From positions 32,001 through 96,000 of the IMG/VR virus record IMGVR_UViG_3300045988_135716: DNA of 64,000 bases; one strand, 5' to 3'. Below, one piece after another: positions 3,546-62,427 of this stretch (within the stretch, counting starts at the first letter, position 1; every line of letters begins with the position of its first letter). The notes under the pieces are model-generated. The model ran no database searches. It was not told the DNA's origin and saw only the letters and a list, made by a program, of their open reading frames with translations. The translations under genes were made by a program, and so were the position numbers. Origin of the DNA: a virus.

Positions 3546-6212
3546 TTGTGTAATCTCCTTTTTATTTTAATGATTTTTGATAATTATTATTTCTCTCTTT
3601 GCGGATTGAAATATTTAGTTTGCATGTTACTGGTTGTAGATTCTCTATTTGAAACAAAGATGATCTATTTTTGCTGGTGAAAATTTGAGGTTAGGTGGGA
3701 TATGAGAGTAGTGATTTTTGTGAATGTAAAAGTACCCCCACTTATCTTTCTATCTAATATTCTCTATTTGAGATTCTGCTTGAGATATTTGTTGTAGATT
3801 ATATGATGTAGATTTAATTTGAAAATTGTAACGTGCAAATGCTAAGTTGCTCAAGTGATGGTATTTGTGATGTTTATTCTAAGTTGTACATTAGAATAGT
3901 GAGCATAGAATTGATTTTAGAGTTGTAGATGATATGTGATTGATATGAAATTGAAATGATTGTATCTTGAAGTGTAACTTTAGCATTTCAAGATTTTTTA
4001 TAATGTATTTTTGAGTAAATTTTTGTGATTAGAATTGTGTGAAAGTTTGACACAATTTAGAGAGGTATTTCCTGATGATGTGAGATTATGGACTTCGAGA
4101 TAGGTGTTTTGGGTGATAATTTTGATTGAGATGGGAGAGTGATGTGTACTTTTAATAGGAAATGATTGCTGCGTTTTAGGTAGATGTGGCAAGGGAATAT
4201 GGGATATTGCAGGATGATAAAATTAAATTAAGTTTATGATCTTGAGATATATAATTAGGTATCACTTCGAGAAGACTTCGTAAATTGTTAGATTTTGCAA
4301 GGGATATTGTGATTTGGAGTAGGTAATTTTGGGTGAAAATTGGTGATTTAGAATTGTCAGAAAATTTATTTTGCGTTGATATGCAAGGGTGCGGTCGAAC
4401 TCAGTCTCGAACTCATTTTGATTATTTTGGTGAATTGTGTGTAGGTTTAGTGCAATTTGTGAGGTGGTATGAGGGTGAGAAATTTTTTGTTGCTGGTGGT
4501 GAGTGTAGAGTGATGGATTACCAGTTTTGATTTTTGGACGAGTAGTGTGAGTTGAACTCATCAGTGGATATGACAATATCATATTAAAATTACAAATGTA
4601 AACTATCCCCGTCCTACTGGTATACATTATAAAACAGGATCATAAAATCGGATTAAAATAGTGTAATATGCAATTCCCGAAAAGCCTTGCTATTGTTGAA
4701 TAAAACTAACTTTTGCACTTTTGTGGGAAGTGTAAAAAAGTCAAGTTTTGTTATTATTTGACATTTTTACTCCGGTCAAAAACATGGGGGTGGTACAGGA
4801 TATAAAAGTTAGTATGATAAAACTAAAATTTTATCGGGTATTCTGGATATGAGATCACGGGACGGTAGACTTTAATTGTATAGACAATTATAAATATTAT
4901 TATAGTATACTCGAAAAAAGGAAAAGTGAGAAAATGAAAGAAAACAAGAGAAAATGAGCGAAAAAACGTGAATAAATGACTATCGGTCAATTCTGTTCGT
5001 TATGTTGGATTTCCAACAAAAAATTTGATTACAAGATTGTAACACAAAATCATAACACAAACTTATATCACCACTTGCACCACAAAAACGTAACAAAATA
5101 GACTAATACACTCCACTTTATACCCAAAAACAGCGGTAAAAATGGGATAGCGCACCACTACAAAATAATACATAAATGTAACACAAAAATTGTATCACAC
5201 TCATATAACACAAAAATCTGGACGAAATAAAACCATCTGGACGCACAACAGTAGACTCTACCAGATAGCAAGATCACACCCCAAACCATCCCCCAAAATA
5301 CAATATAAAATCATATTAACATAACACAATATACTCATACAATAACATCAAATAACCATACATAAACTCACAATAATATACAATATAATATACATTATAT
5401 ATCACATAATACATCACATATAACTTACAATATACATCTATCTATATTCAACTATATACCTACAATATACCACATAATATTACTATTATAATACCTCTGA
5501 TATATCATACAATATACTACAATACATACTCATACAATCAACCATAATGCCACATAATATAACGCATAATATACTCACACTAACCACACCACATTATACA
5601 ATCTGCATCCTATAAAACCATTGCAAATACTACATTCTAACACCATCCAGGGATTAAAATATAACATCAGATCACGATAAAATTATCTTAAAACAGGACG
5701 CAAAACACCACATAAAAACAGATAAAATTATACTCCAAACAAGATAAAAACCACACGCCAAACAGATAAAAATACCTCACATTTCAATCATAAATCAGAC
5801 AAAATACTCACACTTTACCGCAATATTTTACCCATTCGCACACAAAAAACAACGCTATTCTATACAAAATTTTGCATAAAAATACATCAATCAAACTGTA
5901 TAAATATACAATATTCTTGCATAAAATAGCGCACATTTTGACGTAAAAATACACCTAAAAACATATTAAAATGATACAAAAATATCATCATGCTGCACGT
6001 TTCAAACAGTCCAGATATACGATTGTAAATATATCATACTTACAAAATGACCTTGTAAAACGCTCTATAAACGACTTTAAGCGCATAACCCTATATAATT
6101 ATCATATCTAATATAAAAGCCCTTAAAACGTCAAATACACGCTTATAAGGCTATCTGTACATTTTGAACATGATAACAATAGGTTGTTTGTGTTACTTCC
6201 TATTATATGTGG
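3546..6212. other. 2.7-kb ORF-free region with mirrored strand composition (C-poor arm ~3600-4560, mixed core ~4620-4990, G-poor arm ~5040-6000)
   Basis: Hand counts: 69 C in 3601-4560 (about 7%); 56 G in 5041-6000 (about 6%); no G at all 5273-5498; only low-complexity ORFs. Confidence 0.8.
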
Positions 6213-28313: not shown

Positions 28314-29363
28314 ATGTTACAGATTTTAGGCAAAACAGATAAGTTAAGAGATGAATGGACGGTTAGAAAGATTGTAAATAATTATAAAAGTGGTGTTAGC
28401 GTATTTGATAATGCGGTTCAGAGAGGACTTGTCTGGAAGAATGATAAGAAATCAAGACTTATTCGTTCTACTATTCTTAATAGACCAATTCCTCCTATTT
28501 ACGCTTCAAAACATGATGAGATTTATAATAATCTGGATGGAAAACAGAGAAGTTATACATATGTGGAGTTCCTTAATGATGAATTTTCGTTAGAAGGACT
28601 TGATCCCGTCACTGTTAAGAATACAGAAACAGGTGAAATTGAGGATGTGGAATTGAATGGTAAGTGTTTTTCAGAGTTGCCGGAGGAATTACAGAACGCT
28701 ATCACGGATGCAACTTTAACTGTCATTATAATTAACAATGTGACAGAAGATGAAGAATGTGAGATTTTTTATGACATTAATAATGGACAGCCATTAAATG
28801 CTATTACCATTGCAAGAGCAACAGCAAAATCACGTAAAGATATTACTCAGTTGGGACTGCATAAATTATTCCAGAATGCTTTAACTAAGAAAGCATTAGA
28901 GAAATATACAAATGAGGATATTGTTGTTAAGAGTTGGGCTATTTTGCATCAGGAAAATCCATCTCTGGAATCAAAGAATATTAAAAAATTAATGTCAGAA
29001 GTAGAATTAACAGGGGATGATATGATTCAACTTGAAAAATGCTTCGATAGAGTTCTGGCTACATATAACGCCATTGATGATAGAAAGATAGCAAAAAGGA
29101 TTTTAACCAGAACACATATGATTAGTATTATGCGAGTTGTATGGAAATCTATTGAATGTGGGAAATCAGAGGAAGAATTTGCAAATTGGTTTACAAAGTT
29201 TTATTGTGGTAAACAATCTCCTACAAAAGACGAAGTGTATAACAGTTTATGTAGAGCAGGAACTAATAGAACATCTGCGGTATGTAAGAGACTTGAAATT
29301 CTTGAGAATAACTATAATAAATTTTTCAACATATCATCAACAAGTGAAAAGGAGAACGATTAA
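28314..29363 (+). CDS. DUF262-family (ParB/GmrS-like NTPase fold) protein, no nuclease domain seen
   Basis: NAVQRGLVWKNDKKSRLIRSTILNRPIPPIY...LDGKQRS; no DUF1524/HNH motif in C-terminus. Confidence 0.65.
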   Translation: MLQILGKTDKLRDEWTVRKIVNNYKSGVSVFDNAVQRGLVWKNDKKSRLIRSTILNRPIPPIYASKHDEIYNNLDGKQRSYTYVEFLNDEFSLEGLDPVTVKNTETGEIEDVELNGKCFSELPEELQNAITDATLTVIIINNVTEDEECEIFYDINNGQPLNAITIARATAKSRKDITQLGLHKLFQNALTKKALEKYTNEDIVVKSWAILHQENPSLESKNIKKLMSEVELTGDDMIQLEKCFDRVLATYNAIDDRKIAKRILTRTHMISIMRVVWKSIECGKSEEEFANWFTKFYCGKQSPTKDEVYNSLCRAGTNRTSAVCKRLEILENNYNKFFNISSTSEKEND

Positions 29364-29551: not shown

Positions 29552-29563
29552 GAGGTGGGGGTT

Positions 29564-30388
29564 ATGCCAACTTTAGCAATCCAACAGCCGTGTTATATCA
29601 ATCAAAAACAGAAAGCAACGATATACAACTTCCCAAAACAGAAAACATTACGGCGTGGGAAGTCAACAGAGATGGAATGCTTGTATACTAAGGATGAAAT
29701 TTTATCTGTATACAATATGTTTAAAACAGATGTTGATAATGCAACTACTGTTAATAAAGAAAAGAACGCTATGCGAAATCTTACAATGTTCATATGTGCG
29801 ATCAATATTGGATTACGTGGTGGGGATTTTTGCAAACTCACATGGAAAGATGTATATGAAGATGGATGGAGAATTAAAAAGTCACAGAAGTTTGTTCCAG
29901 AAAAAACAGAGCGTAGAGATAGATGTGGAAATGTAATTAAAAGAAAATATGTCAAGTTAAGATATGACAGTGATTTTAAAATGGCTATTCAGAATTGGCA
30001 TAAGTGGTTAGAAGATCATAATGAAACACCTGAGTTGACTGATTATATCTTTTCTTCTAATAAAGGTGAACATATTGGAGAAATGACATGGTATAGAACT
30101 GTTGAGAGGAATAGAATAAAAGCAGGTATTAAACAGTCTATTGGTACTCATGGACTTCGTAAGACTTTTGGACATAGCTATTATTTAGCAGCACCAGATA
30201 AACAACAAGCTCTTATACAGCTTATGACTATTTTTGGACATGCTGATATGCGTATTACTCTAAGATATATTTGTATTACCGATGAAGAAATATTTAAAAA
30301 CCAGGAAAGAATGTGCATTTTCTCGAATGAAGAAGAAACACCAGAAGATTATTTATGTCCACAAGATGATCCAGATATGATAGAATAG
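29564..30388 (+). CDS. tyrosine recombinase / integrase family protein
   Basis: GLRGGDFCKLTW (Arg), THGLRKTFG (HxxR), GHADMRITLRYI (His...Tyr); GGAGGTGGGG SD before ATG 29564. Confidence 0.8.
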   Translation: MPTLAIQQPCYINQKQKATIYNFPKQKTLRRGKSTEMECLYTKDEILSVYNMFKTDVDNATTVNKEKNAMRNLTMFICAINIGLRGGDFCKLTWKDVYEDGWRIKKSQKFVPEKTERRDRCGNVIKRKYVKLRYDSDFKMAIQNWHKWLEDHNETPELTDYIFSSNKGEHIGEMTWYRTVERNRIKAGIKQSIGTHGLRKTFGHSYYLAAPDKQQALIQLMTIFGHADMRITLRYICITDEEIFKNQERMCIFSNEEETPEDYLCPQDDPDMIE

Positions 30389-31858: not shown

Positions 31859-32143
31859 ATGGAAAAAATTAAAGCAAGGCGTGTAGATATAGAATCTGGA
31901 CGTATGGATCAGGATGAGTTTTTAGAGCAAGTTACATCTGCATACGTAGATGCAGAGAAACGTGGCTTCAATAGTATTGTTGTGGCAATTGATACAGATT
32001 TAGATACTACATATTATATTAATGACACACCAGATGGATTCCAGTGTGACTTATGGGATTATTATTTTGATGACTTAGAAACTATTGCTTCTCAGTTATA
32101 TGACGAAATGCATGGTAGTGTGACGGAAATTAGAATTGAGTGA
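31859..32143 (+). CDS. hypothetical acidic protein
   Basis: GGGAG SD before ATG 31859. Confidence 0.45.
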   Translation: MEKIKARRVDIESGRMDQDEFLEQVTSAYVDAEKRGFNSIVVAIDTDLDTTYYINDTPDGFQCDLWDYYFDDLETIASQLYDEMHGSVTEIRIE

Positions 32144-34641: not shown

Positions 34642-35592
34642 TTGTACGCATTTTTTGGAAGGGGGTCTGATTATATAAATAATTATGTAGATTGTGGTTC
34701 TTATTATATTGGGACTACTAAAACAGGATTAAAATTTTATTTTGATAAGAAATATTATAATATAGTATCTTTATATCATTGGAAAATGAATAGTGATCAT
34801 ATTCCAGTAACATGCGTTGATAATAAATATGTTTCAATTAAGAAAATATTATTTGGAAATATATCATTAAAACATATTAACGGGAATAAATCGGACATAA
34901 GAGAAGAAAATTTAATACCAACAAGAGGATTAAATCATGATGGTAAAACTTTTTTGAATGGTTATATTTCTATCTACATGCCAGAACATAAACGAGCATT
35001 TGATAATGGGTGTGTATATGAACATGTGTTAGTTGCAGAAAAAATGTTAAATAGAGAATTAAAAGAAACAGAATGCGTACATCATATAAATCATATTAGA
35101 ACAGATAATCGTCCAGAAAATTTGATGGTATTTCGTACAAACAAAGACCATATTTTGTTTCATGCAGGAAATTATGCAATTTTATTGGATGATGGCTCGT
35201 ATGTCGTTGATGATAAAAAGATAGAATATTTATATAAATATAATAATAGAACTGCGGAAGAAATTAAAAATAACGTTGAGGATAAAGGTTCAGTTACAGT
35301 AATTACATATAAAAGACAGATAGGAAAAGATTTATGTCCAGTCTGTTTAAAACATATGAAATCAATAAAAGCAAAAATGTGTAAAGAATGTTGGGACAAA
35401 GAAAAAAGTACAAATATACCTACAAAGGAAGAACTTGAAAAATATATTTATGATTTTTCATTTGAAAAAATCGGAAAAATGTATGGTGTAACAGGTAAGA
35501 ATATAACGAAATGGTGTAAAAAATATAATTTACCATATAGAAAAAAGGATATGGATAAAAATGAAAGGGGCGATGTAAATTGGATTGCTTAA
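34642..35592 (+). CDS. HNH homing endonuclease (two HNH_3-like motifs, C-terminal HTH)
   Basis: KHINGNKSDIREENL and VHHINHIRTDNRPENLMVF...H; TTG start in track, true start uncertain. Confidence 0.7.
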   Translation: MYAFFGRGSDYINNYVDCGSYYIGTTKTGLKFYFDKKYYNIVSLYHWKMNSDHIPVTCVDNKYVSIKKILFGNISLKHINGNKSDIREENLIPTRGLNHDGKTFLNGYISIYMPEHKRAFDNGCVYEHVLVAEKMLNRELKETECVHHINHIRTDNRPENLMVFRTNKDHILFHAGNYAILLDDGSYVVDDKKIEYLYKYNNRTAEEIKNNVEDKGSVTVITYKRQIGKDLCPVCLKHMKSIKAKMCKECWDKEKSTNIPTKEELEKYIYDFSFEKIGKMYGVTGKNITKWCKKYNLPYRKKDMDKNERGDVNWIA

Positions 35593-39071: not shown

Positions 39072-39659
39072 ATGAACATGAGACTTTCAGAAATTAAAAT
39101 TTCTGCGGATTTTGAAAGCAGTATTCCAAATACATATAAATATAATAAATGTGAAAATTACTATAACAAAACAGGAAATCAGGATAGGTACATAGTAGTA
39201 GATGAGAAGAATGTTTTAGTAGATGGTTATATAATGTATTTAGTATTGAAAAATCATGATGTGGAATATGGTAATGTAAAACGTTTGACATTAAGAAAAC
39301 ATACTTATACTGATAAGCAACGTAAAAAGTATGGACGATTGATTTCACCTAAACACGTTGTTACATACAAGGAAAAACCAACTGCTTATGTATACGGAAA
39401 ACATCCTAATAGTAAAGACAATAAAGAATACGTTTGGAGATTACCGCAAGCATGGGGATATATGAGTCTTATGTTACAAAAAGGTGATGTAATCTATTGT
39501 GGTACAAGATTTGGAGTTGCACCTGTTGTTGTAACTAAAGTGGAATTAAAATCTAATTTTGATACCAGTTTATGTATTAAAAAAGTATGCTCACAGAAGA
39601 TTTATAGGAATGGAGAATTATTAAAATATGATAGTAAGGATGGATCAACTAATGTGTAA
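39072..39659 (+). CDS. possible ParB N-terminal-domain-like protein
   Basis: LSEIKISADFESSIP...RYIVVDEKNVLVDGYIMYLVLKNHDVEYGNV resembles ParB/Srx N-domain; weak. Confidence 0.35.
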   Translation: MNMRLSEIKISADFESSIPNTYKYNKCENYYNKTGNQDRYIVVDEKNVLVDGYIMYLVLKNHDVEYGNVKRLTLRKHTYTDKQRKKYGRLISPKHVVTYKEKPTAYVYGKHPNSKDNKEYVWRLPQAWGYMSLMLQKGDVIYCGTRFGVAPVVVTKVELKSNFDTSLCIKKVCSQKIYRNGELLKYDSKDGSTNV

Positions 39660-39819
39660 TCATAACTGGGTATTAATCGAAAAGCCACGACATTTAAAGT
39701 ATAATTATAGTGGGTTAGAAGTTGTGATTGGTAAATGTCGATGCACGAAATGTAAGAAGATAAAGGATAGAAAGATGATTGGTCACCAGATTGGAAATAT
39801 ATTTGAGGAGACAGGATAA
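39652..39819 (+). CDS. small zinc-ribbon protein
   Basis: MCNHNW...CRCTKC; AAGGATGGA SD before ATG 39652. Confidence 0.4.
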   Translation: MCNHNWVLIEKPRHLKYNYSGLEVVIGKCRCTKCKKIKDRKMIGHQIGNIFEETG

Positions 39820-39838
39820 AAGCGTGGTTTCATTGCCA

Positions 39839-40010
39839 GTTTTTAGAAGAGCTTAAATTTATAGAGTTCTAAAACTAATGAGGTACATTGGTTAAGTGTA
39901 GTGCACACGTTTTAGAAGAGTGTAAATTTATAGGGTTCTAAAGCTCCTTGCCCGTCATGCCGATAGCACAGCCAGTTTTAGAAGAGTGTAAATTTATAAG
40001 GTTCTAAAGC
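39839..40010 (+). CRISPR. mini-CRISPR array: 3 repeats (36-37 nt), 2 spacers (33 and 30 nt)
   Basis: R1 39839-39875, R2 39909-39944, R3 39975-40010 (R2/R3 differ at 1 nt; R1 degenerate); unique spacers 39876-39908 and 39945-39974; repeats partly palindromic (TTTAGAA...TTCTAAA). Confidence 0.75.
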
Positions 40011-40288
40011 CTCAAATTTACAAGAACCTTATAAATTATGAAATGTACGTATGTACATACGTTGTCAACTAAAAATAGAATAAGTGATACATAAGTTGAA
40101 CTACATTATTATAAGAGAATATGTTATTGTGTCGCTCTAGCAATAATTATATCGTGAAAAGCTAAACATCCATTACATAATTCTGTAAAACACTCTTAAT
40201 GGAAGTGCTTGAACATCAAAGACTTATAATAATATTTTCGAAGAGCATTACCAGTTTTATACTGAGATTATATTTAAGGACAAAGAAA
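40011..40288 (+). ncRNA. anti-repeat plus omega-RNA/tracrRNA-like scaffold leader of the IscB gene
   Basis: 40024-40037 GAACCTTATAAATT is the perfect complement of 39991-40004 in R3; ~250 nt ORF-free, contains 16-nt palindrome 40047-40062; abuts SD/ATG of IscB. Confidence 0.55.
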
Positions 40289-41842
40289 ATGAATTACTTA
40301 GATTTTGCATTTGTAATAGATAAAAATAATAATCCTTGTATGCCTATTTATGAAGGATATGCAGGTAAATTATTGAGAAGTAAAAAAGCAGTTATTGTAA
40401 ATCATGATCCATTAGTTGTACAAAGACACGATGAATATAATGCAGATTTAGAGTTTAGAGATAGAATTACATTAAAAGTAGATACTGGATATGAAAATAT
40501 AGGATTTTCAGTCAGTGATAGTAAACATGAATATTTATCAGGTCAAGTTAAATTGCTTAATGGAATATCTAAGAGGTTATTGGCTAGAAAAGAACATAGA
40601 GGTTGTCGTAGACAAAGATTAAGATATAGAAAAAACAAAGCCATAGACTATAAAACAGTTAATAATCCAACATATAAAAATGGGAATCAAGATGGTTGGT
40701 TAGCACCTTCAATTTTACATAGAATTAATTCGCATTTGAGATTAGTTGATAAAATTGCTTCTTGGATTCCAATTGATAAAGTGATTATTGAAACTGCGAA
40801 CTTTGATATACAGAAAATAAAAGCTATATTAAACGACAAAGAAATTGAAGGAGTCGAATATCAGTTAGGAGAAATGTATGGATTTGAAAATGTTAAACAG
40901 TATGTAAGAGAACGAGACAATTATACTTGTCAAATATGCGAAGCTGGACAAGATAAAGATAAGAAAAATGTTCCTATAGAAGTACATCATATTATTCCAC
41001 GTTCAAAAGGAGGTTCTAATAAGCCAGATAATTTAATTTCGTTATGTAAAACCTGTCATAAAAAAGTTCATATGAATAATAATGACAATGATTTATTTAG
41101 AAAATTGCAACATGATGGAGTGAAAAATACATACAAAGATGCTTCATTTATGAACATCATGAGATGGACGCTATATAATCAGTTAAAAGAAAAATATGAC
41201 GTATCTATATCATATGGTTATATAACAAAATTAAATAGACGAATGGCAAATCTGAAAAAGTACCATTATATTGATGCGTTGTGCATTTCAGATTATCATG
41301 AAATTACACTTACTAAAAATATTTATTTAGTTGAACAAAAACGATGTAATGATAGATGTATGGAATCGTTTTTTGATGCCAAATATATTGATAGTAGAGA
41401 TAATAAAATAAAGGAAGGAACTGAATTATGTAAAGTCAGAAAATCATATGCATCGAGAAGATCTACAAGAAAAGAAGATATTGAAAACAATCGTATTTTT
41501 AGAAAAGAAAAAGTTGAAAAAGGAAGAAGACAATATAGATGTCATTCATATTGTTTAAAAGCAGGAGATTTAGTATATATAAATTATGGAAAACATAAAG
41601 GCAAAATAGCAGAATTTTCAACAATGAAAAAAACTCCAACTGGTTCATATCAAATAAAATTTATTTATGATGGACAAGAATGTAAATGTCCATCAATATC
41701 TATCAAACCAGAAGAGTATATTCAATTAACAACAAATCAATGTGACAAAGTAAAAATTGTACGTACTCGTAGAGGTATGATTTGGCGAAAAACTGATAGA
41801 TTAGAATATGAGTCAAACACACCTGAACAGTATAGACCTTAA
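40289..41842 (+). CDS. iscB: IscB-family RNA-guided nuclease (PLMP-RuvC-bridge helix-HNH-RuvC), 517 aa
   Basis: FVIDKNNNPCMPI (PLMP-like); KVDTG (RuvC-I); RGCRRQRLRYRKN (bridge helix); IIETANFD (RuvC-II); CQIC...HHIIPRSKGGSNKPDNLISLCKTCH (HNH); HYIDA (RuvC-III); AAGGA SD 8 nt before ATG 40289. Confidence 0.85.
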   Translation: MNYLDFAFVIDKNNNPCMPIYEGYAGKLLRSKKAVIVNHDPLVVQRHDEYNADLEFRDRITLKVDTGYENIGFSVSDSKHEYLSGQVKLLNGISKRLLARKEHRGCRRQRLRYRKNKAIDYKTVNNPTYKNGNQDGWLAPSILHRINSHLRLVDKIASWIPIDKVIIETANFDIQKIKAILNDKEIEGVEYQLGEMYGFENVKQYVRERDNYTCQICEAGQDKDKKNVPIEVHHIIPRSKGGSNKPDNLISLCKTCHKKVHMNNNDNDLFRKLQHDGVKNTYKDASFMNIMRWTLYNQLKEKYDVSISYGYITKLNRRMANLKKYHYIDALCISDYHEITLTKNIYLVEQKRCNDRCMESFFDAKYIDSRDNKIKEGTELCKVRKSYASRRSTRKEDIENNRIFRKEKVEKGRRQYRCHSYCLKAGDLVYINYGKHKGKIAEFSTMKKTPTGSYQIKFIYDGQECKCPSISIKPEEYIQLTTNQCDKVKIVRTRRGMIWRKTDRLEYESNTPEQYRP

Positions 41843-41919
41843 TACATATCATATCTAAAACATTCTTATAAAAGATCCCAATTTTATCATAATTGAATAT
41901 ATAGAAAGAGGTGATAACC

Positions 41920-42066
41920 ATGATCCTAGTAATGCGAATAATCCTTGTACCATTATGTATCGCAAATGCGATTGTTCAGAAACGAAACACACAAAAAGTC
42001 CTCTGGTCTTGCATGGCATTATGTTGGCTTGGATTGTGTGTAGATGAAATTATGAAAATTTGGTAA
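41920..42066 (+). CDS. small membrane protein (48 aa)
   Basis: AGAGGTGA SD; hydrophobic (MILVMRIILVPLCIANAIV...). Confidence 0.4.
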   Translation: MILVMRIILVPLCIANAIVQKRNTQKVLWSCMALCWLGLCVDEIMKIW

Positions 42067-42080
42067 AGAAAAGGAGAAAA

Positions 42081-42482
42081 ATGAGAGACAGAAGTGAATT
42101 TGGAAGAATGTATGGAATTATTTTCACCAATGATGATTATGTTGGTATGAAAAAGCTTGATGAAATTTTAAGAGAAAAGTTGGCACAAGGAATTAAGTGT
42201 GTAAGACATGACCGACTTGGATATTATTGTAATTACATTATGAAATTTTCGGATGATGATGTATGGAGAATTATTTCACCACATGACAAATCTGTGAGGT
42301 GCTTAAAATGGAATTTAGCATATATAGACGCTTATAATACTACTTTGGATGATTACATGAATATTATTATTCCTTCTGGTGATACAACAATGGTTGAAGA
42401 ACCAAAATATTTTAATTGGGATAATGAATATTTTAAAGATTTAGTTATTGGCAAACGGCAAGAATTTAAGTGGATAGAATAA
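42081..42482 (+). CDS. hypothetical protein
   Basis: AAAGGAG SD before ATG 42081. Confidence 0.5.
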   Translation: MRDRSEFGRMYGIIFTNDDYVGMKKLDEILREKLAQGIKCVRHDRLGYYCNYIMKFSDDDVWRIISPHDKSVRCLKWNLAYIDAYNTTLDDYMNIIIPSGDTTMVEEPKYFNWDNEYFKDLVIGKRQEFKWIE

Positions 42483-49000: not shown

Positions 49001-49984
49001 TTGAGTCATTTAGTTGAAAATAATAATTCATCTGAGAATGGATTAAGAGTATTAAGTCTATTCGATGGTATATCTTGTGGCAGAATTGCATTGGATAGAG
49101 CTGGATTTAAGGTTAAAGATTATTACGCTTATGAGATTGAACAGAATGCAATCAAGATAAGCAGATATAATTATCCGTCCATTTATCAATGTGGTGATGT
49201 TTTTGATGAAGATTTTAGTAAATATGATGGTATTGATTTGTTAATTGGTGGCAGTCCCTGTACTGAATTTTCAGTAGCAAAGTGTTCTAAAACTGCAAAA
49301 CATAAAAGAGAAGTCGTGCCTGGTGGAGATGGTTGGAAATTGTTTATGCAATATGTAAGAGCGTTACATGAATCGAAACCAAAATATTTTCTATATGAGA
49401 ACAATTATGGCATTGCAGATTCTATACGTGATGCTATCACAAAAGAACTTGGTGTTGAACATGTGCTTTTAGACAGCCAATTAGTTTCAGCTCAAAGACG
49501 TAAGAGATTATATTGGACGAATATTCCAATAAAAGGAGAACCAGAAGATAGAGGAATTTTAGTAAAGGATGTGATTGTAAATGATTCTGAACTAATTAAG
49601 CAGTTTGATGATCGTATTAGAAACACATTAGTCAAATGTGAGAATTACATAAAATATGATTTAAGTGGCAAAGGACATTTTTCTCAGCAAGATAGGATGT
49701 ATTTTCTTAATAATAAAGCACCAACAGTTCCAAGATGTAGAACTGAAACTAAATTTAATGTTTGGTTAGGTGGAGAAACATATAAGAAAACTTGTCCTGT
49801 TGAGATAGAAAGACTTCAAACATTACCAGATGGATATACGGAGTTTGGGTTGAATGAAGATGGAAGCATTGTGAAAATGCCGAAAACAAGAAGATTTGAA
49901 GCTATTGGTAACGGTTGGACTGTTGACATTATAGCTTGGATATTTAGTTTTATGAAGGAGAAACAAGATGCAAATAACAGCTAA
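49001..49984 (+). CDS. DNA (cytosine-5)-methyltransferase
   Basis: LFDGISCG (I), GGSPCTEFS (IV), ENNYG (VI), QRRKRLYW (VIII), GNGWTV (X); TTG start. Confidence 0.85.
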   Translation: MSHLVENNNSSENGLRVLSLFDGISCGRIALDRAGFKVKDYYAYEIEQNAIKISRYNYPSIYQCGDVFDEDFSKYDGIDLLIGGSPCTEFSVAKCSKTAKHKREVVPGGDGWKLFMQYVRALHESKPKYFLYENNYGIADSIRDAITKELGVEHVLLDSQLVSAQRRKRLYWTNIPIKGEPEDRGILVKDVIVNDSELIKQFDDRIRNTLVKCENYIKYDLSGKGHFSQQDRMYFLNNKAPTVPRCRTETKFNVWLGGETYKKTCPVEIERLQTLPDGYTEFGLNEDGSIVKMPKTRRFEAIGNGWTVDIIAWIFSFMKEKQDANNS

Positions 49985-50834
49985 AAGCTATTTTAGTGGA
50001 GCAGGAGGAATGGATTTAGGAATAGAGGAATCTGGAATTAACATAATTGAATCGTATGAGATAGATAAAAAGTGTTGCGACACTTTGAGAAAGAATTTCA
50101 AACATCATGTAAATGAGTCAGATATTACACAGATTACAGTTCTCGATCAGAATGATGCGGATGTTTATATTGGTACATTTCCATGTACACGATATTCAAC
50201 CATTGCTGATATTTCAGGTATAAGAACAGGTGATGATTTATTTTTACATTTCTTTAGGCATATTGCTTTAGCACAACCAGAAATGTATGTAGTAGAAAAC
50301 GTTCCTGGAATGCTTAAATTCAAAGTAGTTATGGAAGCATTGACAAAATTACCTGATTATTACGTGAGAGTTGAATGTCCTATTAACGCAAATATGTGGT
50401 TGCCACAAGAAAGAAAACGATTGATTCTAATTGGAAGTAAGAAACCATTTACCAATTTTGATTATCCTGATTCTCAACCATTAAAACTGAAAGATATTAT
50501 CGAAAATGATGCTTCGATTGATATTCCACAATATGTATATAATCGCATTAATGGAAAATATAGAGATAAACCAATTGTTTCAGATCCAGATAATGATGAT
50601 CTTGCTCCAACATGTGTAGCGCATTACGCAAAAGATAAAGGAACAAGATTAATCAAAGATGGAAAGAGAATTAGACCATATACAGTAAGGGAATATGCTA
50701 GACTGCAAGGTTTTCCAGATTGGTTTGAGTTCTGTGGAACAGATAATGATGCTTATAGACAGATTGGTAATGCTGTTGCTGTTCCAATGGGACGTTGGAT
50801 TGGCAAACAGATTGTAAAATATTTTAATTCATAA
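49968..50834 (+). CDS. DNA (cytosine-5)-methyltransferase (second, overlapping by 17 nt)
   Basis: FSGAGGMDLG (I), GTFPCTRYS (IV), VVENVPG (VI), QERKRLILIG (VIII), RQIGNAVAVP (X). Confidence 0.85.
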   Translation: MQITAKSYFSGAGGMDLGIEESGINIIESYEIDKKCCDTLRKNFKHHVNESDITQITVLDQNDADVYIGTFPCTRYSTIADISGIRTGDDLFLHFFRHIALAQPEMYVVENVPGMLKFKVVMEALTKLPDYYVRVECPINANMWLPQERKRLILIGSKKPFTNFDYPDSQPLKLKDIIENDASIDIPQYVYNRINGKYRDKPIVSDPDNDDLAPTCVAHYAKDKGTRLIKDGKRIRPYTVREYARLQGFPDWFEFCGTDNDAYRQIGNAVAVPMGRWIGKQIVKYFNS

Positions 50835-54116: not shown

Positions 54117-55480
54117 ATGAACTACGAAGATTTTCTAAAACAAAAGGATTATGTTCTGGAAAGTAGTGGATTTAATATTGATAAAGATAAATTAAATCCC
54201 ATGCTATTTGACTTTCAGAAAGACGTAGTAAGATGGGCATTAGCAAAAGGTAGAGCTTGTATTTTTGCAGAGTGTGGGCTTGGTAAAACGCCAATGCAAT
54301 TATCATGGGCGCATCAAGTACATCTACATACGGGCGGTAAAGTTTTAATTCTTGCACCTCTATCGGTTGCGGATCAGACAAAGAGAGAATCTGAAAAATT
54401 CCATTACAATGCAAAAGTATGTGAGAAACAGGAAGATTGTATTGATGGAATCAACATTACAAACTATGAGAAATTAGACAAATTCGTAGCAAATGAATTT
54501 GTTGGAGTAGTCTTAGACGAGAGTTCAATTCTTAAATCCTACACTGGTAAAGTGAGGACTTCTATTATCGAGAATTTCCAAAATGTTCCCTATAAATTAG
54601 CTTGTACTGCGAACCTGCCCCAAATGATTATATGGAGTTGGGAAATCATTCGGAATTTTGTGGAGTTATGACACGTTCAGAGATGTTATCAATGTTCTTT
54701 GTTCATGATGGTGGTCAAACATCTAAGTGGAGATTAAAAGGTCATGCAAAAGATGTATTTTGGCAATGGATGGCAAGTTGGTCTGTATTTATTGATAATC
54801 CATCAAATTTAGGATATGACGGTACAGATTATGAATTACCTAATTTGAATATTCATGAAATTATAGTTGATGGAGATGAACCAATCACTGAATCACTCAC
54901 ATTAACAGAGCGTAGAAATGCAAGAAAAGATACTCTTGAATTAAGATGTCAAAAAGCAGCAGATTTAGTAAATAATTCAGATGAACAATGGTTAGTCTGG
55001 TGTGATCTTAATGCAGAAGGCGATAGATTGAATGAACTGATTGAAGAAAGTAAAAACGTTCAAGGAAGTGATAAGAATAAATACAAGAGTGAAACAATGC
55101 TATCATTTTCTGATGAAAAATTAAAATGTCTTATCAGCAAGCCACAGCTCGCAGGATATGGCATGAATTGGCAGAATTGCCACAATGTTATTTTTACTGG
55201 ACTTTCTGATAGTTTTGAGCAATATTATCAGGCTGTAAGAAGATGTTGGCGTTTTGGTCAGACAAAAGAAGTCAATGTATACATAATCATTTCAGCAAAA
55301 GAAGGTTGTGTAAAAGAGAATATTGAAAGAAAGCAATTAGATTTCATTACTATGAGAGATGCAATGATTAATCTGACTAAAGAAATTACTAAGAAAGAGC
55401 TTAAATCAACGTGTAGGCTTACTACACCATATGAAGCAAATACAACAATGAAATTACCAAATTGGGAGGAATTCAAATAA
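54117..55480 (+). CDS. SNF2/DEAD-like helicase, split by a 1-nt frame shift at ~54612-54614
   Basis: ECGLGKTPMQ (motif I), VVLDESSILK (II), ...KLACTA | PAPNDYMELGNHSEF... continues in next frame; QAVRRCWRFGQTKEV (VI); two track ORFs 54117-54671 and 54602-55480. Confidence 0.75.
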
Positions 55481-56388
55481 TGATGAACGTAATTGATCAA
55501 GCAGTAGCAAATAGATATGCACTTTATCATGGAGACAGTGTAGAAATTACTAAGGAGATTCCAGATAATAGCATTCACTACACTATCTTTTCACCACCAT
55601 TTTCACAGTTATATGTGTACTCTAATTCAGATAGAGATATGGGTAATTGTAAAGGTGATGAAGAATTCTATAATCATTTCAAATATCTTGCAAAAGAATT
55701 ATATAGAATTACAATGCCTGGACGACTTCTGAGTTTTCATTGTATGGATTTACCTCTTATGAAATCAAGAGATGGTGTAATTGGATTAAAAGATTTTCCT
55801 GCGCTCATGCTTAAAATCTTTCAGGATTGTGGATTTATCTATCATAGTAAAGTAACTATTTGGAAGAATCCTGTTACAGAAATGCAAAGAACAAAAGCAC
55901 TTGGGCTTTTACATAAACAGATTAAGAAAGATAGTAGTATGAGTCGTCAAGGACTTCCAGATTATGTGATCACGGTTAGGAAGCCTGGTGATAATCCAGA
56001 ACGAGTTGAACACACAAATGAATCATTTCCTGTTAATGTATGGCAAAATTACGCTTCACCTGTATGGATGGACATTAGGCAGAGTGATACATTACAGAGA
56101 AAATCAGCAAGATCTGAACAGGATGAGAAACATATTTGTCCATTACAGCTTGAAGTAATTCAGAGATGTATTGAATTATGGACGAATCCAAACGATATTG
56201 TGTTTGATCCGTTTGGTGGAATTGGTTCTACTCCATATGTTGCACTTAAATTAGGAAGAAGAGGAATTGCAAGTGAATTAAAAGATAGTTATTTTGAGCA
56301 GTTGAAGAAAAATGTAGAGTCTGTGGCTGCCGAAGAACCAGAATTATTTCCAGTTGGAGAAAAGAGTATTGAGGATGTAGTCGCATAA
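55480..56388 (+). CDS. beta-class DNA amino-methyltransferase (N6-adenine or N4-cytosine)
   Basis: IFSPPF (motif IV) precedes FDPFGGIGST (motif I); GGGAGG SD; TAATG overlap with helicase stop. Confidence 0.8.
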   Translation: MMNVIDQAVANRYALYHGDSVEITKEIPDNSIHYTIFSPPFSQLYVYSNSDRDMGNCKGDEEFYNHFKYLAKELYRITMPGRLLSFHCMDLPLMKSRDGVIGLKDFPALMLKIFQDCGFIYHSKVTIWKNPVTEMQRTKALGLLHKQIKKDSSMSRQGLPDYVITVRKPGDNPERVEHTNESFPVNVWQNYASPVWMDIRQSDTLQRKSARSEQDEKHICPLQLEVIQRCIELWTNPNDIVFDPFGGIGSTPYVALKLGRRGIASELKDSYFEQLKKNVESVAAEEPELFPVGEKSIEDVVA

Positions 56389-61326: not shown

Positions 61327-62427
61327 ATGAAAGACATTAAGATTGTAATTGGAGCAAATTTTGGGGATGAAGGAAAGGGCTTGATGACAGATTATTTTTC
61401 GCAAAAATCCAATAGCATTGTTGTGTGTTCAAATGGTGGAGCGCAAAGAGGACATACTGTAACAACGCCAACTGCAATTAGACATGTCTTTCATCATTTT
61501 GGATCAGGTACATTTAATAACGCAAGTACATATTTATCTGAGGATTTTATTCTTAATCCAATTATTTTTAAACAAGAATATGATGAGTTAGTAAAACTTA
61601 ATCATAATCCAAATGTATATATTAATCAAAATTGCATGATAACAACTCCATTTGATATGATAGCTAATCAAATCGTTGAGGAAAGCCGTGGTAAAAATAA
61701 ACATGGTAGTTGTGGATTAGGGGTTTTTGAGACAATTAAAAGATATAGAGCTGGTGTAACTGATTTAGATTACAATATTAAAGAATACTATTTGGAACAA
61801 CTTAAAAAGGAGGACATTGAATTATCAGGCGAATGGTTGAAAATCTTTTTTGATAATGGTATATTTGAACATTTCTTAGAAGACTTGGATTTTATGAATA
61901 GCCATTCATTGTGTATTTCAGATGAATATTTCTTAAATCAGTATGACAATATTATTTTTGAAGCAGCACAAGGGCTTTTACTTGATCAAAATAATATTGA
62001 TTATTTTCCACATCTTACCCCATCTAACACTGGAATTAAAAATCCCAAGAAAATAATTGAAAATATTGAATGGAATGATGATATAAATATTGAAACTTGT
62101 TATGCATCTCGTACTTATTTAACAAGACATGGCGCAGGGAAATTTCCATCAGAATGCAATAAAAATTTTATTAACGAATATATGTATGATAAAACAAATG
62201 TTCCAAATCCTTTTCAAGATAGATTAAGATATGGATATCTTAATCTAAGAGAACTATATAATAGATGTTCTGATGATATTGGAGATTTTGGAAACACAAA
62301 ATCAATTGCAATTACCCATTGTAACGAATATGACAAATGGGATAATGATTTGCTTATAAATTTATTTAATGATTGGAATATTTATTATTCTGATGGAGAA
62401 ACCCGAAATGATGTAGATTTAAGATAA
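61327..62427 (+). CDS. adenylosuccinate-synthetase-family (PurA/PurZ-like) enzyme, short divergent form
   Basis: IVIGANFGDEGKGLMTD (P-loop GDEGKG with catalytic Asp) and NGGAQRGHTV (GHT His); 366 aa, shorter than bacterial PurA. Confidence 0.6.
   Translation: MKDIKIVIGANFGDEGKGLMTDYFSQKSNSIVVCSNGGAQRGHTVTTPTAIRHVFHHFGSGTFNNASTYLSEDFILNPIIFKQEYDELVKLNHNPNVYINQNCMITTPFDMIANQIVEESRGKNKHGSCGLGVFETIKRYRAGVTDLDYNIKEYYLEQLKKEDIELSGEWLKIFFDNGIFEHFLEDLDFMNSHSLCISDEYFLNQYDNIIFEAAQGLLLDQNNIDYFPHLTPSNTGIKNPKKIIENIEWNDDINIETCYASRTYLTRHGAGKFPSECNKNFINEYMYDKTNVPNPFQDRLRYGYLNLRELYNRCSDDIGDFGNTKSIAITHCNEYDKWDNDLLINLFNDWNIYYSDGETRNDVDLR

Follow-up and report, generated by a model that had tools for sequence, protein, structure and literature searches.

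A phage-borne, CRISPR-associated IscB on a 2.25-kb cassette with a short spacer array apparently joined to its own guide-RNA scaffold

Introduction

How can a nuclease that normally travels with transposons and holds one fixed guide come to be supplied with exchangeable guides, and what would it target when a phage carries it? This question is raised by a locus in the viral record IMGVR_UViG_3300045988_135716 of IMG/VR, from which we analysed positions 32,001 to 96,000; this stretch of 64,000 nucleotides (nt) is called the window here, and coordinates refer to it unless another contig is named. Three direct repeats and two spacers precede a gene for an IscB protein in the window, and a first-pass annotation of the letters had suggested a phage-borne IscB fed by a miniature CRISPR array. 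We put the probability at about 75% that the locus is a phage-borne, CRISPR-associated IscB on a 2.25-kb cassette, composed of a short array, an anti-repeat, an omega-RNA scaffold and iscB, and working by the mechanism proposed below. The module is apparently functional. CRISPR-associated IscBs are of interest as they show how a fixed-guide transposon nuclease can turn adaptive.

39834..42080, plus strand: whole cassette, 2.25 kb, with array, scaffold, iscB and an open reading frame (ORF) of 51 amino acids (aa)

Results

The IscB protein

40276..40280, plus strand: Shine-Dalgarno-like AAGGA, 8 nt upstream of the ATG
40289..41842, plus strand: iscB, predicted 517-aa RNA-guided endonuclease, ATG start

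The protein shows the IscB domain order throughout: a PLMP/RRXRR N-terminus, RuvC-I with D65, an Arg-rich bridge helix, RuvC-II with E168, an HNH domain with H233-H234, RuvC-III with H326 and D329, and a C-terminal beta-rich domain. It matches the NCBIfam equivalog NF040563 (guided_IscB, 'RNA-guided endonuclease IscB') with 295.7 bits at a cutoff of 175, and Pfam RRXRR (2.7e-37) and HNH (6.2e-13), while a sequence search of the PDB returned TbaIscB (2e-31) and OgeuIscB (4e-29). An AlphaFold2 model (predicted local distance difference test, pLDDT, 77; predicted template-modelling score, pTM, 0.66) was compared with solved structures by Foldseek; the top match was 8csz, an IscB-omega-RNA-DNA complex (E 4e-25, template-modelling score ~0.5), followed by other IscBs, IsrB and type II-D Cas9s, with the large Cas9s distant. 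No Cas9 family matched the 517-aa window protein, and it has no recognition (REC) lobe. These family, sequence and structure matches bear out the earlier assignment as an IscB with complete domain order.

Close relatives of the protein number about 40, measure 513-579 aa and stand clearly apart from the ordinary IscBs of ~450 aa. Across 26 clade members sharing 46-93% identity, D65 (RuvC-I), E168 (RuvC-II), H233/H234, N248 and H257 (HNH), and H326 and D329 (RuvC-III) are invariant, and in alignment with solved IscBs they fall on the HH...N and H-x-x-D motifs. None of the catalytic RuvC and HNH residues is missing, and by its residues the window protein is predicted to be a catalytically intact IscB. 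A longer in-frame ORF begins at the ATG at 40199; every homolog begins at the MNY/MKY position instead, and an AAGG/AGGA run stands at the Shine-Dalgarno place in most related loci. Two catalogued proteins belong to the same clade, namely QuioIscB1 (QUIO01000086.1, Ruminococcus sp. AM42-11; 58% identity over 384 aa) and EspIscB '(CR)' (DMEH01000222.1, Eubacterium sp. UBA11922; 65% over 401 aa), both entries of an ortholog table (Supplementary Table 1 of PMC13180657).

The array and its junction

39840..39875, plus strand: repeat R1, degenerate (86% identity to R2), most distal from iscB and putatively the oldest array end
39876..39908, plus strand: spacer 1, 33 nt, unique in the window
39909..39944, plus strand: repeat R2, sharing its first 15 nt with the L. 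coryniformis KCTC3167 repeat of type II-A
39945..39974, plus strand: spacer 2, 30 nt, 60% G+C; putatively the newest spacer, fused in cis to the scaffold
39975..40010, plus strand: repeat R3, with which the guide-RNA scaffold begins (5' end); the 5' strand of the repeat:anti-repeat hairpin is made by its positions 17-31, and one strand of a candidate pseudoknot by positions 8-15
40011..40017, minus strand: junction motif CTCAAAT (minus-strand reading ATTTGAG), at which spacer integration may be anchored
40023..40037, plus strand: anti-repeat, the 3' strand of the hairpin, 15/15 complementary to 39991-40005

The three repeats measure 36 nt each, share 86-100% identity with the reference copy and have the ends GTTTTAGA...CTAAAAC. 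Neither of the two spacers between them recurs elsewhere in the window (up to three mismatches allowed; no chance matches expected), and spacer 2 has 18 G+C in 30 nt against ~0.28-0.31 in the surrounding window. Three direct repeats, two unique spacers and a G+C-rich second spacer had been described before, and the window sequence confirms all of these. A degenerate first repeat such as R1 is the rule among related loci.

On the minus strand, the junction and the end of the adjoining repeat read ATTTGAG/G(C/T)TT, and the sequence continues as G(T/C)TTTAGA. In type II-A group 1 arrays, leader and repeat meet at a conserved ATTTGAG/GTTT, and S. thermophilus requires this junction to integrate spacers (PMC5382924, which cites Wei et al. 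2015). The window thus shows a 36-nt repeat, ~30-nt spacers and an ATTTGAG/GTTT junction, all features of type II-A arrays, with the junction at the array end nearest iscB, on the minus strand. For comparison we assembled 48 loci, 14 from IMG/VR contigs (up to 206 kb, most of 82-206 kb) and 34 from metagenomes. Every locus with enough upstream DNA has one to eight 36-nt repeats, a CTCAAA-like junction, an anti-repeat, a scaffold and the ATG in this order. The junction after the array reads CTCAAA(T/G/A) in six of the nine repeat groups and has a near variant in two more, while the adjoining stems have diverged.

The anti-repeat hairpin and the omega-RNA scaffold

The arms of the inverted repeat at 39991-40005 and 40023-40037 are complementary at 15 of 15 positions with 17 nt between them; the built-in repeat:anti-repeat hairpin is therefore real, and one base pair longer than the 14 originally noticed. 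It also follows from the sequence, as had been stated, that pairing with the anti-repeat would take one G:U pair for R2, and one G:U pair plus one mismatch for R1. The guide adaptor hairpin of IscB has been equated structurally with the repeat:anti-repeat duplex of Cas9 (PMC9640706), and by position the window hairpin corresponds to this adaptor hairpin. The variable stretch of repeat, loop and anti-repeat could not be aligned by MAFFT and was left unpaired by RNAalifold, and duplex energies were computed locus by locus with cognate and non-cognate partners. Each of the nine repeat groups shows pairing between the 3' two-thirds of the repeat and the stretch preceding the scaffold core. Cognate duplexes average -18.6 +/- 3.4 kcal/mol and non-cognate ones -11.0 +/- 3.9 kcal/mol, a gain of 7.6 kcal/mol, and among the nine partners the cognate one comes out first, second or third. 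The covariation of anti-repeat with repeat, a lack of which would have spoken against the first-pass reading, is thus present in these energies.

40047..40062, plus strand: small hairpin, a 16-nt palindrome; a lineage-specific scaffold insert
40071..40268, plus strand: conserved omega-RNA scaffold core with covarying helices and blocks in common with the validated CdiIscB1 omega RNA
40105-40115 / 40223-40233: scaffold helix H1
40124-40129 / 40141-40146: scaffold helix H2
40154-40162 / 40207-40214: scaffold helix H3
40166-40172 / 40200-40206: scaffold helix H4
40252-40255 / 40261-40264: scaffold helix H5, the terminal hairpin

Downstream of the anti-repeat, an alignment of 28 distinct sequences running from the last repeat to the ATG gave five helices with 35 pairs, 23 of which have compensatory changes on both sides. 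Scaffold cells are paired in 96.7% of cases, compared with 81.3 +/- 0.7% in column shuffles, none of 500 attaining the real figure, and 33-46% in controls whose partner was slid by one to three columns. The scaffold shares with CdiIscB1-type omega RNAs the blocks ATAG-CTAAG, CTACGTTA, CTCTAG, TAAACAT, AAGTG and ATAACATTG-CGAAGAG as well as the terminal hairpin. That the leader is omega-RNA-like can therefore be put more strongly than before: it is a structured, covarying RNA homologous, by the shared blocks, to validated omega RNAs. The 16-nt palindrome lies where it had been placed; among the loci it occurs only in the window, in L173 (a contig from another sample) and in L139, which keeps its stem as ACGTAT/ATACGT.

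The 5' third of the repeat sits outside the hairpin, and its positions 8-15 show complementarity to the loop that immediately precedes the scaffold's invariant GGAAGTG, in the window AAGAGTGT (39982-39989) with ACACTCTT (40190-40197). Compensatory variants of this candidate pseudoknot occur in L002 (AAGAATGT/ACATTCTT) and L162 (AGTATTGT/ACAATATT), and also in L164, L156 and L159. By inspection, canonical Clostridial omega RNAs have a like complementarity at the same two places, e.g. CTGCCA / TGGCAG in CdiIscB1. If formed, the pseudoknot would account for the ~14-16 nt between guide and duplex. In addition, the invariant GTTTT at the repeat start is complementary to an invariant AAAA(T) before ATAGA; these two could pair, and the pair shows no variation.

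Given the type II-A look of the array, it might be a phage mini-array that feeds a Cas9 of the host, with CRISPR RNAs (crRNAs) from either strand, and IscB with its omega RNA would then be an independent neighbour. The dimensions and ends of repeats and spacers, the 15 repeat nt shared with a Lactobacillus II-A repeat, the ATTTGAG/GTTT junction and the lack of any cas gene found on the phage would all fit. However, the anti-repeat is fixed before the omega-RNA core on the iscB strand and covaries with the repeat in nine groups, and the distance from the last repeat to the ATG keeps to 231-293 nt in all 48 loci. Moreover, a minus-strand crRNA cannot pair with the anti-repeat because both have the same sense, and the window repeat (GTTTTAGAAGARTGTAAATTTATAG, searched exactly) was found in no host genome among 185,579 species representatives. 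We consider an array serving host Cas9 unlikely and return to the reading in which array and scaffold belong to the IscB.

Spacer turnover and polarity

Related loci hold 100 different spacers, and 129 of 141 spacers measure 29-31 nt. Near-identical phages differ in their spacers at a definite end of the array. L165 equals L009 minus the iscB-proximal spacer, as L148 equals L006 minus its proximal one, and L161 equals L160 plus one proximal spacer; in the pairs L154/L155, L157/L171 and L011/L012 only the distal spacer is common. The last spacer of L145 (spacer 4) is spacer 1 of L144, which then has two newer spacers. L140 and L143 show a single repeat with no spacer in a flank that bears four repeats in L003 and seven in L002. 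Because the differences between near-identical phages lie iscB-proximal and the degenerate repeats lie distal, new spacers appear to enter at the repeat adjoining the anti-repeat, so that the newest spacer would always be fused in cis to the scaffold. With spacer content turning over among relatives, the repeats represent a real array rather than a dispersed repeat family with invariant sequence between its copies.

Some arrays hold two similar but non-identical spacers, e.g. AAAAAGAAGATGTGGTTCTGGCACAACCCGG and AGAAAAATGTGGTACTGGCATGATCCGG (L015 5491-5585; spacers 3 and 4 of L164), and one spacer exists in variant forms in the sibling phages L007 and L010, as if variants of a single target had been sampled more than once. 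In L011-L014 (~5300-5500), the array starts right after sequences that resemble the 3' end of a tRNA (GGTTCGATTCCC...), by their look alone.

Could the module be an inactive relic, with array and RNA kept by recent common descent and an IscB that is no longer RNA-guided? R1 is degenerate, and the ortholog table gives the target-adjacent motif (TAM) of QuioIscB1 and of EspIscB as '-', which stands either for inactivity in the assay used or for a missing result (PMC13180657). Such a relic is very unlikely in our judgement, in that the catalytic residues are invariant at a protein identity of just 46-93%, 23 scaffold pairs have been maintained through two-sided changes, the anti-repeat follows the changes of the repeat, and near-identical phages differ in spacer content.

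Spacer targets

Searched against GenBank phages, spacer 2 matches Bacteroides phage BU2-1 at 25 of 25 nt, a marmot-gut microvirus at 23 of 25 and a human-gut phage contig at 23 of 24. The best full-length match of spacer 2 is 28 of 30; the exact 3' 25 nt gave no match in IMG/VR. For spacer 1, GenBank phages gave no convincing match and the exact 3' part was without a match in IMG/VR. Database searches of both spacers had been proposed by the first-pass annotation, and they thus yielded phage matches for spacer 2, none of them perfect, and no convincing match for spacer 1. Spacers of related loci were searched in concatenated form against GenBank phages, 26 and then 68 of them, with no match, and in IMG/VR the 3' parts of two further spacers, searched exactly, led back to nothing but their own arrays. 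The spacers of L005 and L009 match (25/30 and 27/30) a 68-aa helix-turn-helix (HTH) gene that adjoins a SIR2 gene in the sibling phage L006. The expected use against other mobile elements or against the host is supported in its first part, by spacer matches to other phages; nothing speaks for its second.

The HTH and SIR2-family genes form a pair directly upstream of the array at L006 4524-5478 (also in L147), and siblings that lack the pair carry the anti-HTH spacers.

The core of spacer 2 coincides with a 23-nt element that reads GCTG(C/T)GCTATCGGC(A/T)T(G/T)ACGGGC on the gene strand and is matched in the window at 39948-39972. With a degenerate pattern of this 23-nt core, the element turns up in more than 120 viral contigs (L016-L138; e.g. 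L016 1501-1525 and L022 8943-8965), BU2-1 and Microviridae included, a count to be read as a lower bound of at least 120 IMG/VR contigs. Among the matches listed, there is mostly one copy per fetched stretch (two in L096), the next ATG follows the element at a distance of exactly 7 nt in 67 of 118 cases, and the genes beside it are unrelated, falling into 37 upstream and 44 downstream protein clusters. It forms a G+C-rich island in short AT-rich intergenic gaps, 6-10 nt past a stop codon. No Rfam family matched it at the 16 loci searched, and a search of the literature by sequence gave no match. A tRNA fragment, an attP core, a cos site, a promoter and a riboswitch were considered for the element, and none could be supported.

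The phage setting and the cassette

The window flanks are ~90% identical to MT835469.1, a 176-kb phage of human faeces, and relatives of the locus lie on IMG/VR viral contigs of 82-206 kb, in agreement with the phage carriage proposed earlier. Homology to MT835469.1 ends at 39833, 5-6 nt ahead of R1. L173 has an identical IscB and the same two spacers, with 99.3% identity over window 39776-42080, and past the position equivalent to 42080 it resumes with the ADP-ribosylglycohydrolase gene that MT835469.1 has there. Because homology to MT835469.1 stops at 39833 and resumes in L173 after the equivalent of 42080, 39834-42080 appears as an insertion relative to the closest phage genome. No Cas1, Cas2, Csn2 or TnpA domain occurs in the neighbours or in any ORF of at least 250 aa in the window, and no adaptation genes or TnpA lie within +/-10 kb of iscB in two other clade phage contigs.

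41911..42066, plus strand: 51-aa ORF, strongly hydrophobic; inside the block shared with L173 and without a counterpart in MT835469.1

This small ORF gave no match to Pfam or any other family. The surroundings resemble a cassette-exchange hot spot between conserved phage genes (window 39834-42478 compared with L001 8762-9811 and L173 2306-3092), in which the slot holds an ADP-ribosylglycohydrolase gene in MT835469.1, the IscB cassette and a 140-aa ORF in the window, and the IscB cassette and the glycohydrolase gene in L173.

Given that IscB is normally borne by transposons, the locus might alternatively be an ordinary IS200/IS605-type element of the OMEGA kind, whose 'array' is a tandem duplication of the omega-RNA 5' end and whose 'spacers' are leftovers of recombination. 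It would suit this explanation that the module is a 2.25-kb insertion, that the repeat doubles as the 5' end of the scaffold, and that certain loci show one repeat without any spacer. Nevertheless, no Y1 transposase was found in the neighbours or ORFs of at least 250 aa (transposon ends not having been searched for), and no TnpA in the neighbourhood. The 100 unrelated spacers with their tight length of 29-31 nt, the strict 36-nt repeats and the polarised turnover are the signature of an integrase with a ruler, and spacers match foreign phage DNA. An ordinary OMEGA element is therefore distinctly unlikely, and a CRISPR-associated IscB is the reading that we carry forward.

Elsewhere, the window encodes a sliding-clamp-like protein, a helicase and an anti-repressor, together with a rich assortment of genes of DNA conflict: a GmrSD-N-like protein, three DNA methylases (two of them adjacent, with a 17-nt overlap), GIY-YIG and HNH endonucleases, and a tyrosine recombinase (28314-29363, 49001-50834, 55462-56388, 302-1462, 34642-35592 and 29555-30388). 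A PurZ-like adenylosuccinate synthetase is encoded at 61327-62427 (phrog_1211; Pfam Adenylsucc_synt), and the clade phage L174 has a gene like it (4947-6107) at 4 kb from iscB. Clade phages may substitute 2-aminoadenine for adenine, which could affect whether the nuclease cuts self or non-self DNA.

Discussion

How would such a module work? Transcription would run on the plus strand through the array into the scaffold, and the last spacer, R3, the anti-repeat and the scaffold would fold into a natural single guide. The earlier suggestion of a natural single-guide RNA gains support from the scaffolds of QuioIscB1 and EspIscB, which are written in PMC13180657 from the repeat onward. The 3' part of the last spacer would then direct IscB to cut matching DNA beside a TAM. 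Older spacer-repeat units would be usable only once the cis repeat had been removed or displaced, whereupon they could pair with the anti-repeat in trans; such release might come from cleavage in the duplex or the loop, or from a scaffold transcript starting past R3. New spacers would be inserted at the repeat adjoining the anti-repeat, and the likeliest source is a Cas1-Cas2-Csn2 machinery of a type II-A host acting in trans, which is suggested because a II-A junction, II-A dimensions and a polarity of gain occur together with an absence of integrase genes. The purpose of the module would be conflict with other phages in the same host.

Several observations weigh against this reading. No perfect protospacer was found for any spacer searched, no TAM is derivable, and the flanks of the two imperfect protospacers and the 23-nt element show no common motif. 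A covariance scan for HEARO, which had been called for, gave no match, since a search of Rfam including HEARO over 39500-42200 (E <= 10) returned chance snoRNA-like matches only; the HEARO model may not cover Clostridia-type omega RNAs, and we do not regard its silence as a defining failure. A scan for transcription signals, of little value in DNA this AT-rich, found 25 promoter-like sites against 16.8 +/- 3.7 expected and no terminators. The repeat:anti-repeat duplex begins ~14-16 nt past the guide, whereas in Cas9 guides it follows the guide directly. As for the pseudoknot that would fill this gap, it comes from duplex searches and inspection, and its energy matrix is only weakly diagonal; it is therefore called a candidate here. 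The conserved CTCAAA could serve RNA processing or protein contact rather than integration. Selection of protospacers by a host Cas9 through its protospacer-adjacent motif (PAM) would put the PAM opposite the side of the IscB TAM. The TAM entries '-' for QuioIscB1 and EspIscB point in the same unfavourable direction, and so does the failure to find the window repeat among the host species representatives; since no host with the same repeat was found, the II-A donor is hypothetical. A scan of genome contigs also gave no match to the window protein clade. Finally, the locus is known here from its sequence alone.

The first-pass annotation had further seen in the locus an intermediate on the way from OMEGA to type II. 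This part of it is not supported: the repeats, the spacer length and the junction look like those of derived type II-A systems, and reviews state that IscB joined CRISPR several times independently of Cas9 (PMC10734277), which puts such associations outside the lineage of Cas9. That the array is II-A in character speaks against an ancestral OMEGA-to-Cas9 intermediate, and argues that it was captured or moulded after type II-A had come into existence.

A more specific scenario can be offered tentatively, and we regard it as possible though more probably wrong than right. Host II-A machinery might refill phage IscB arrays in trans, with the ATTTGAG anchor built into the loop of the guide hairpin, such that the newest spacer is hard-wired as the guide and older ones are demoted upstream; the guide of the window would be aimed at a 23-nt element found in hundreds of unrelated gut phages. 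Should the II-A junction truly recruit Cas1-Cas2 of the host, a mobile element would here plainly be using host adaptation to supply its own effector, which would also account for the cis position of the newest spacer. If the guide is indeed aimed at the 23-nt element, a single guide would have a broad reach against rival phages.

Whatever the source of its spacers, the clade offers a natural set of variants, with 48 loci, 9 repeat types and ~100 spacers, on which several ideas can be tested: the sharing of a cis-fused guide RNA with upstream spacers, spacer supply without an integrase, and the use of such modules by phage against phage. In practical terms, it holds predicted nucleases of ~520 aa with natural single-guide RNAs.

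Comparison with known systems

The canonical OMEGA IscBs, OgeuIscB and CdiIscB1, resemble the window system in domain order, fold, scaffold blocks and terminal hairpin. They have one fixed guide, a GTCAAC...GTTGA adaptor stem and IS200/IS605 carriage, whereas the window has several copies of the scaffold's first 36 nt, with exchangeable spacers between them, and no transposase was found in the neighbourhood.

Type II-A systems share with it the 36-nt repeats, the 30-nt spacers, the ends GTTTTAGA...AAAAC, the ATTTGAG/GTTT junction with polarised gain at that junction, and a repeat:anti-repeat duplex. In contrast to type II-A, the effector is a 517-aa IscB without a REC lobe, no adaptation genes were found in the neighbourhood, the 3' two-thirds of the repeat pair with an anti-repeat joined in cis, and transcription, as proposed, would run towards the 'leader' side and not away from it.

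Mini-CRISPR arrays borne by archaeal viruses and phages take part in inter-viral conflict; they are short, have no adaptation genes and use the effector of the host. The window array is likewise short, without adaptation genes and, as in such arrays, the spacers point against related viruses, but here the phage would bring its own effector and scaffold RNA.

CRISPR-associated IscBs of the DelIscB or CasIscB-1 type were reportedly described by Altae-Tran and colleagues in 2021. DelIscB, a protein of 457 aa from an aquatic metagenome, has a noncoding RNA with spacers, repeat, anti-repeat and scaffold, cuts DNA with the TAM NAC, has been engineered for editing, and is described as architecturally intermediate between OMEGA and type II (PMC12660989). 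Both systems have an IscB effector without cas1 and cas2 and, on the same strand upstream, a noncoding RNA in which one or more spacers and a direct repeat are combined with an anti-repeat and an omega-like scaffold. However, DelIscB belongs to another protein clade, with 30% identity to the window protein, while the window clade measures 513-579 aa, occurs in phages of gut, rumen and similar habitats, and has repeats of type II-A.

The nearest catalogued relatives, QuioIscB1 and EspIscB, have the same succession of repeat, CTCAAA, anti-repeat and scaffold, and the EspIscB scaffold opens with the repeat, junction and anti-repeat of the L012 group (GTTTTGGATATCTGTTAATTTTAAGTACTCTAAAAC CTCAAAT...). 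Their entries in the ortholog table hold nothing on phage carriage, spacer turnover, polarity, a II-A-type junction or targets (PMC13180657). The novelty implied by the first-pass annotation, which took CRISPR-associated IscBs to be reported only sporadically, was thus overrated: DelIscB has been characterised, and both CRISPR-associated IscBs as such and the clade of the window protein are already catalogued. What appears new is the route by which the spacers of this phage-borne module are refilled, and the targets at which they are aimed.

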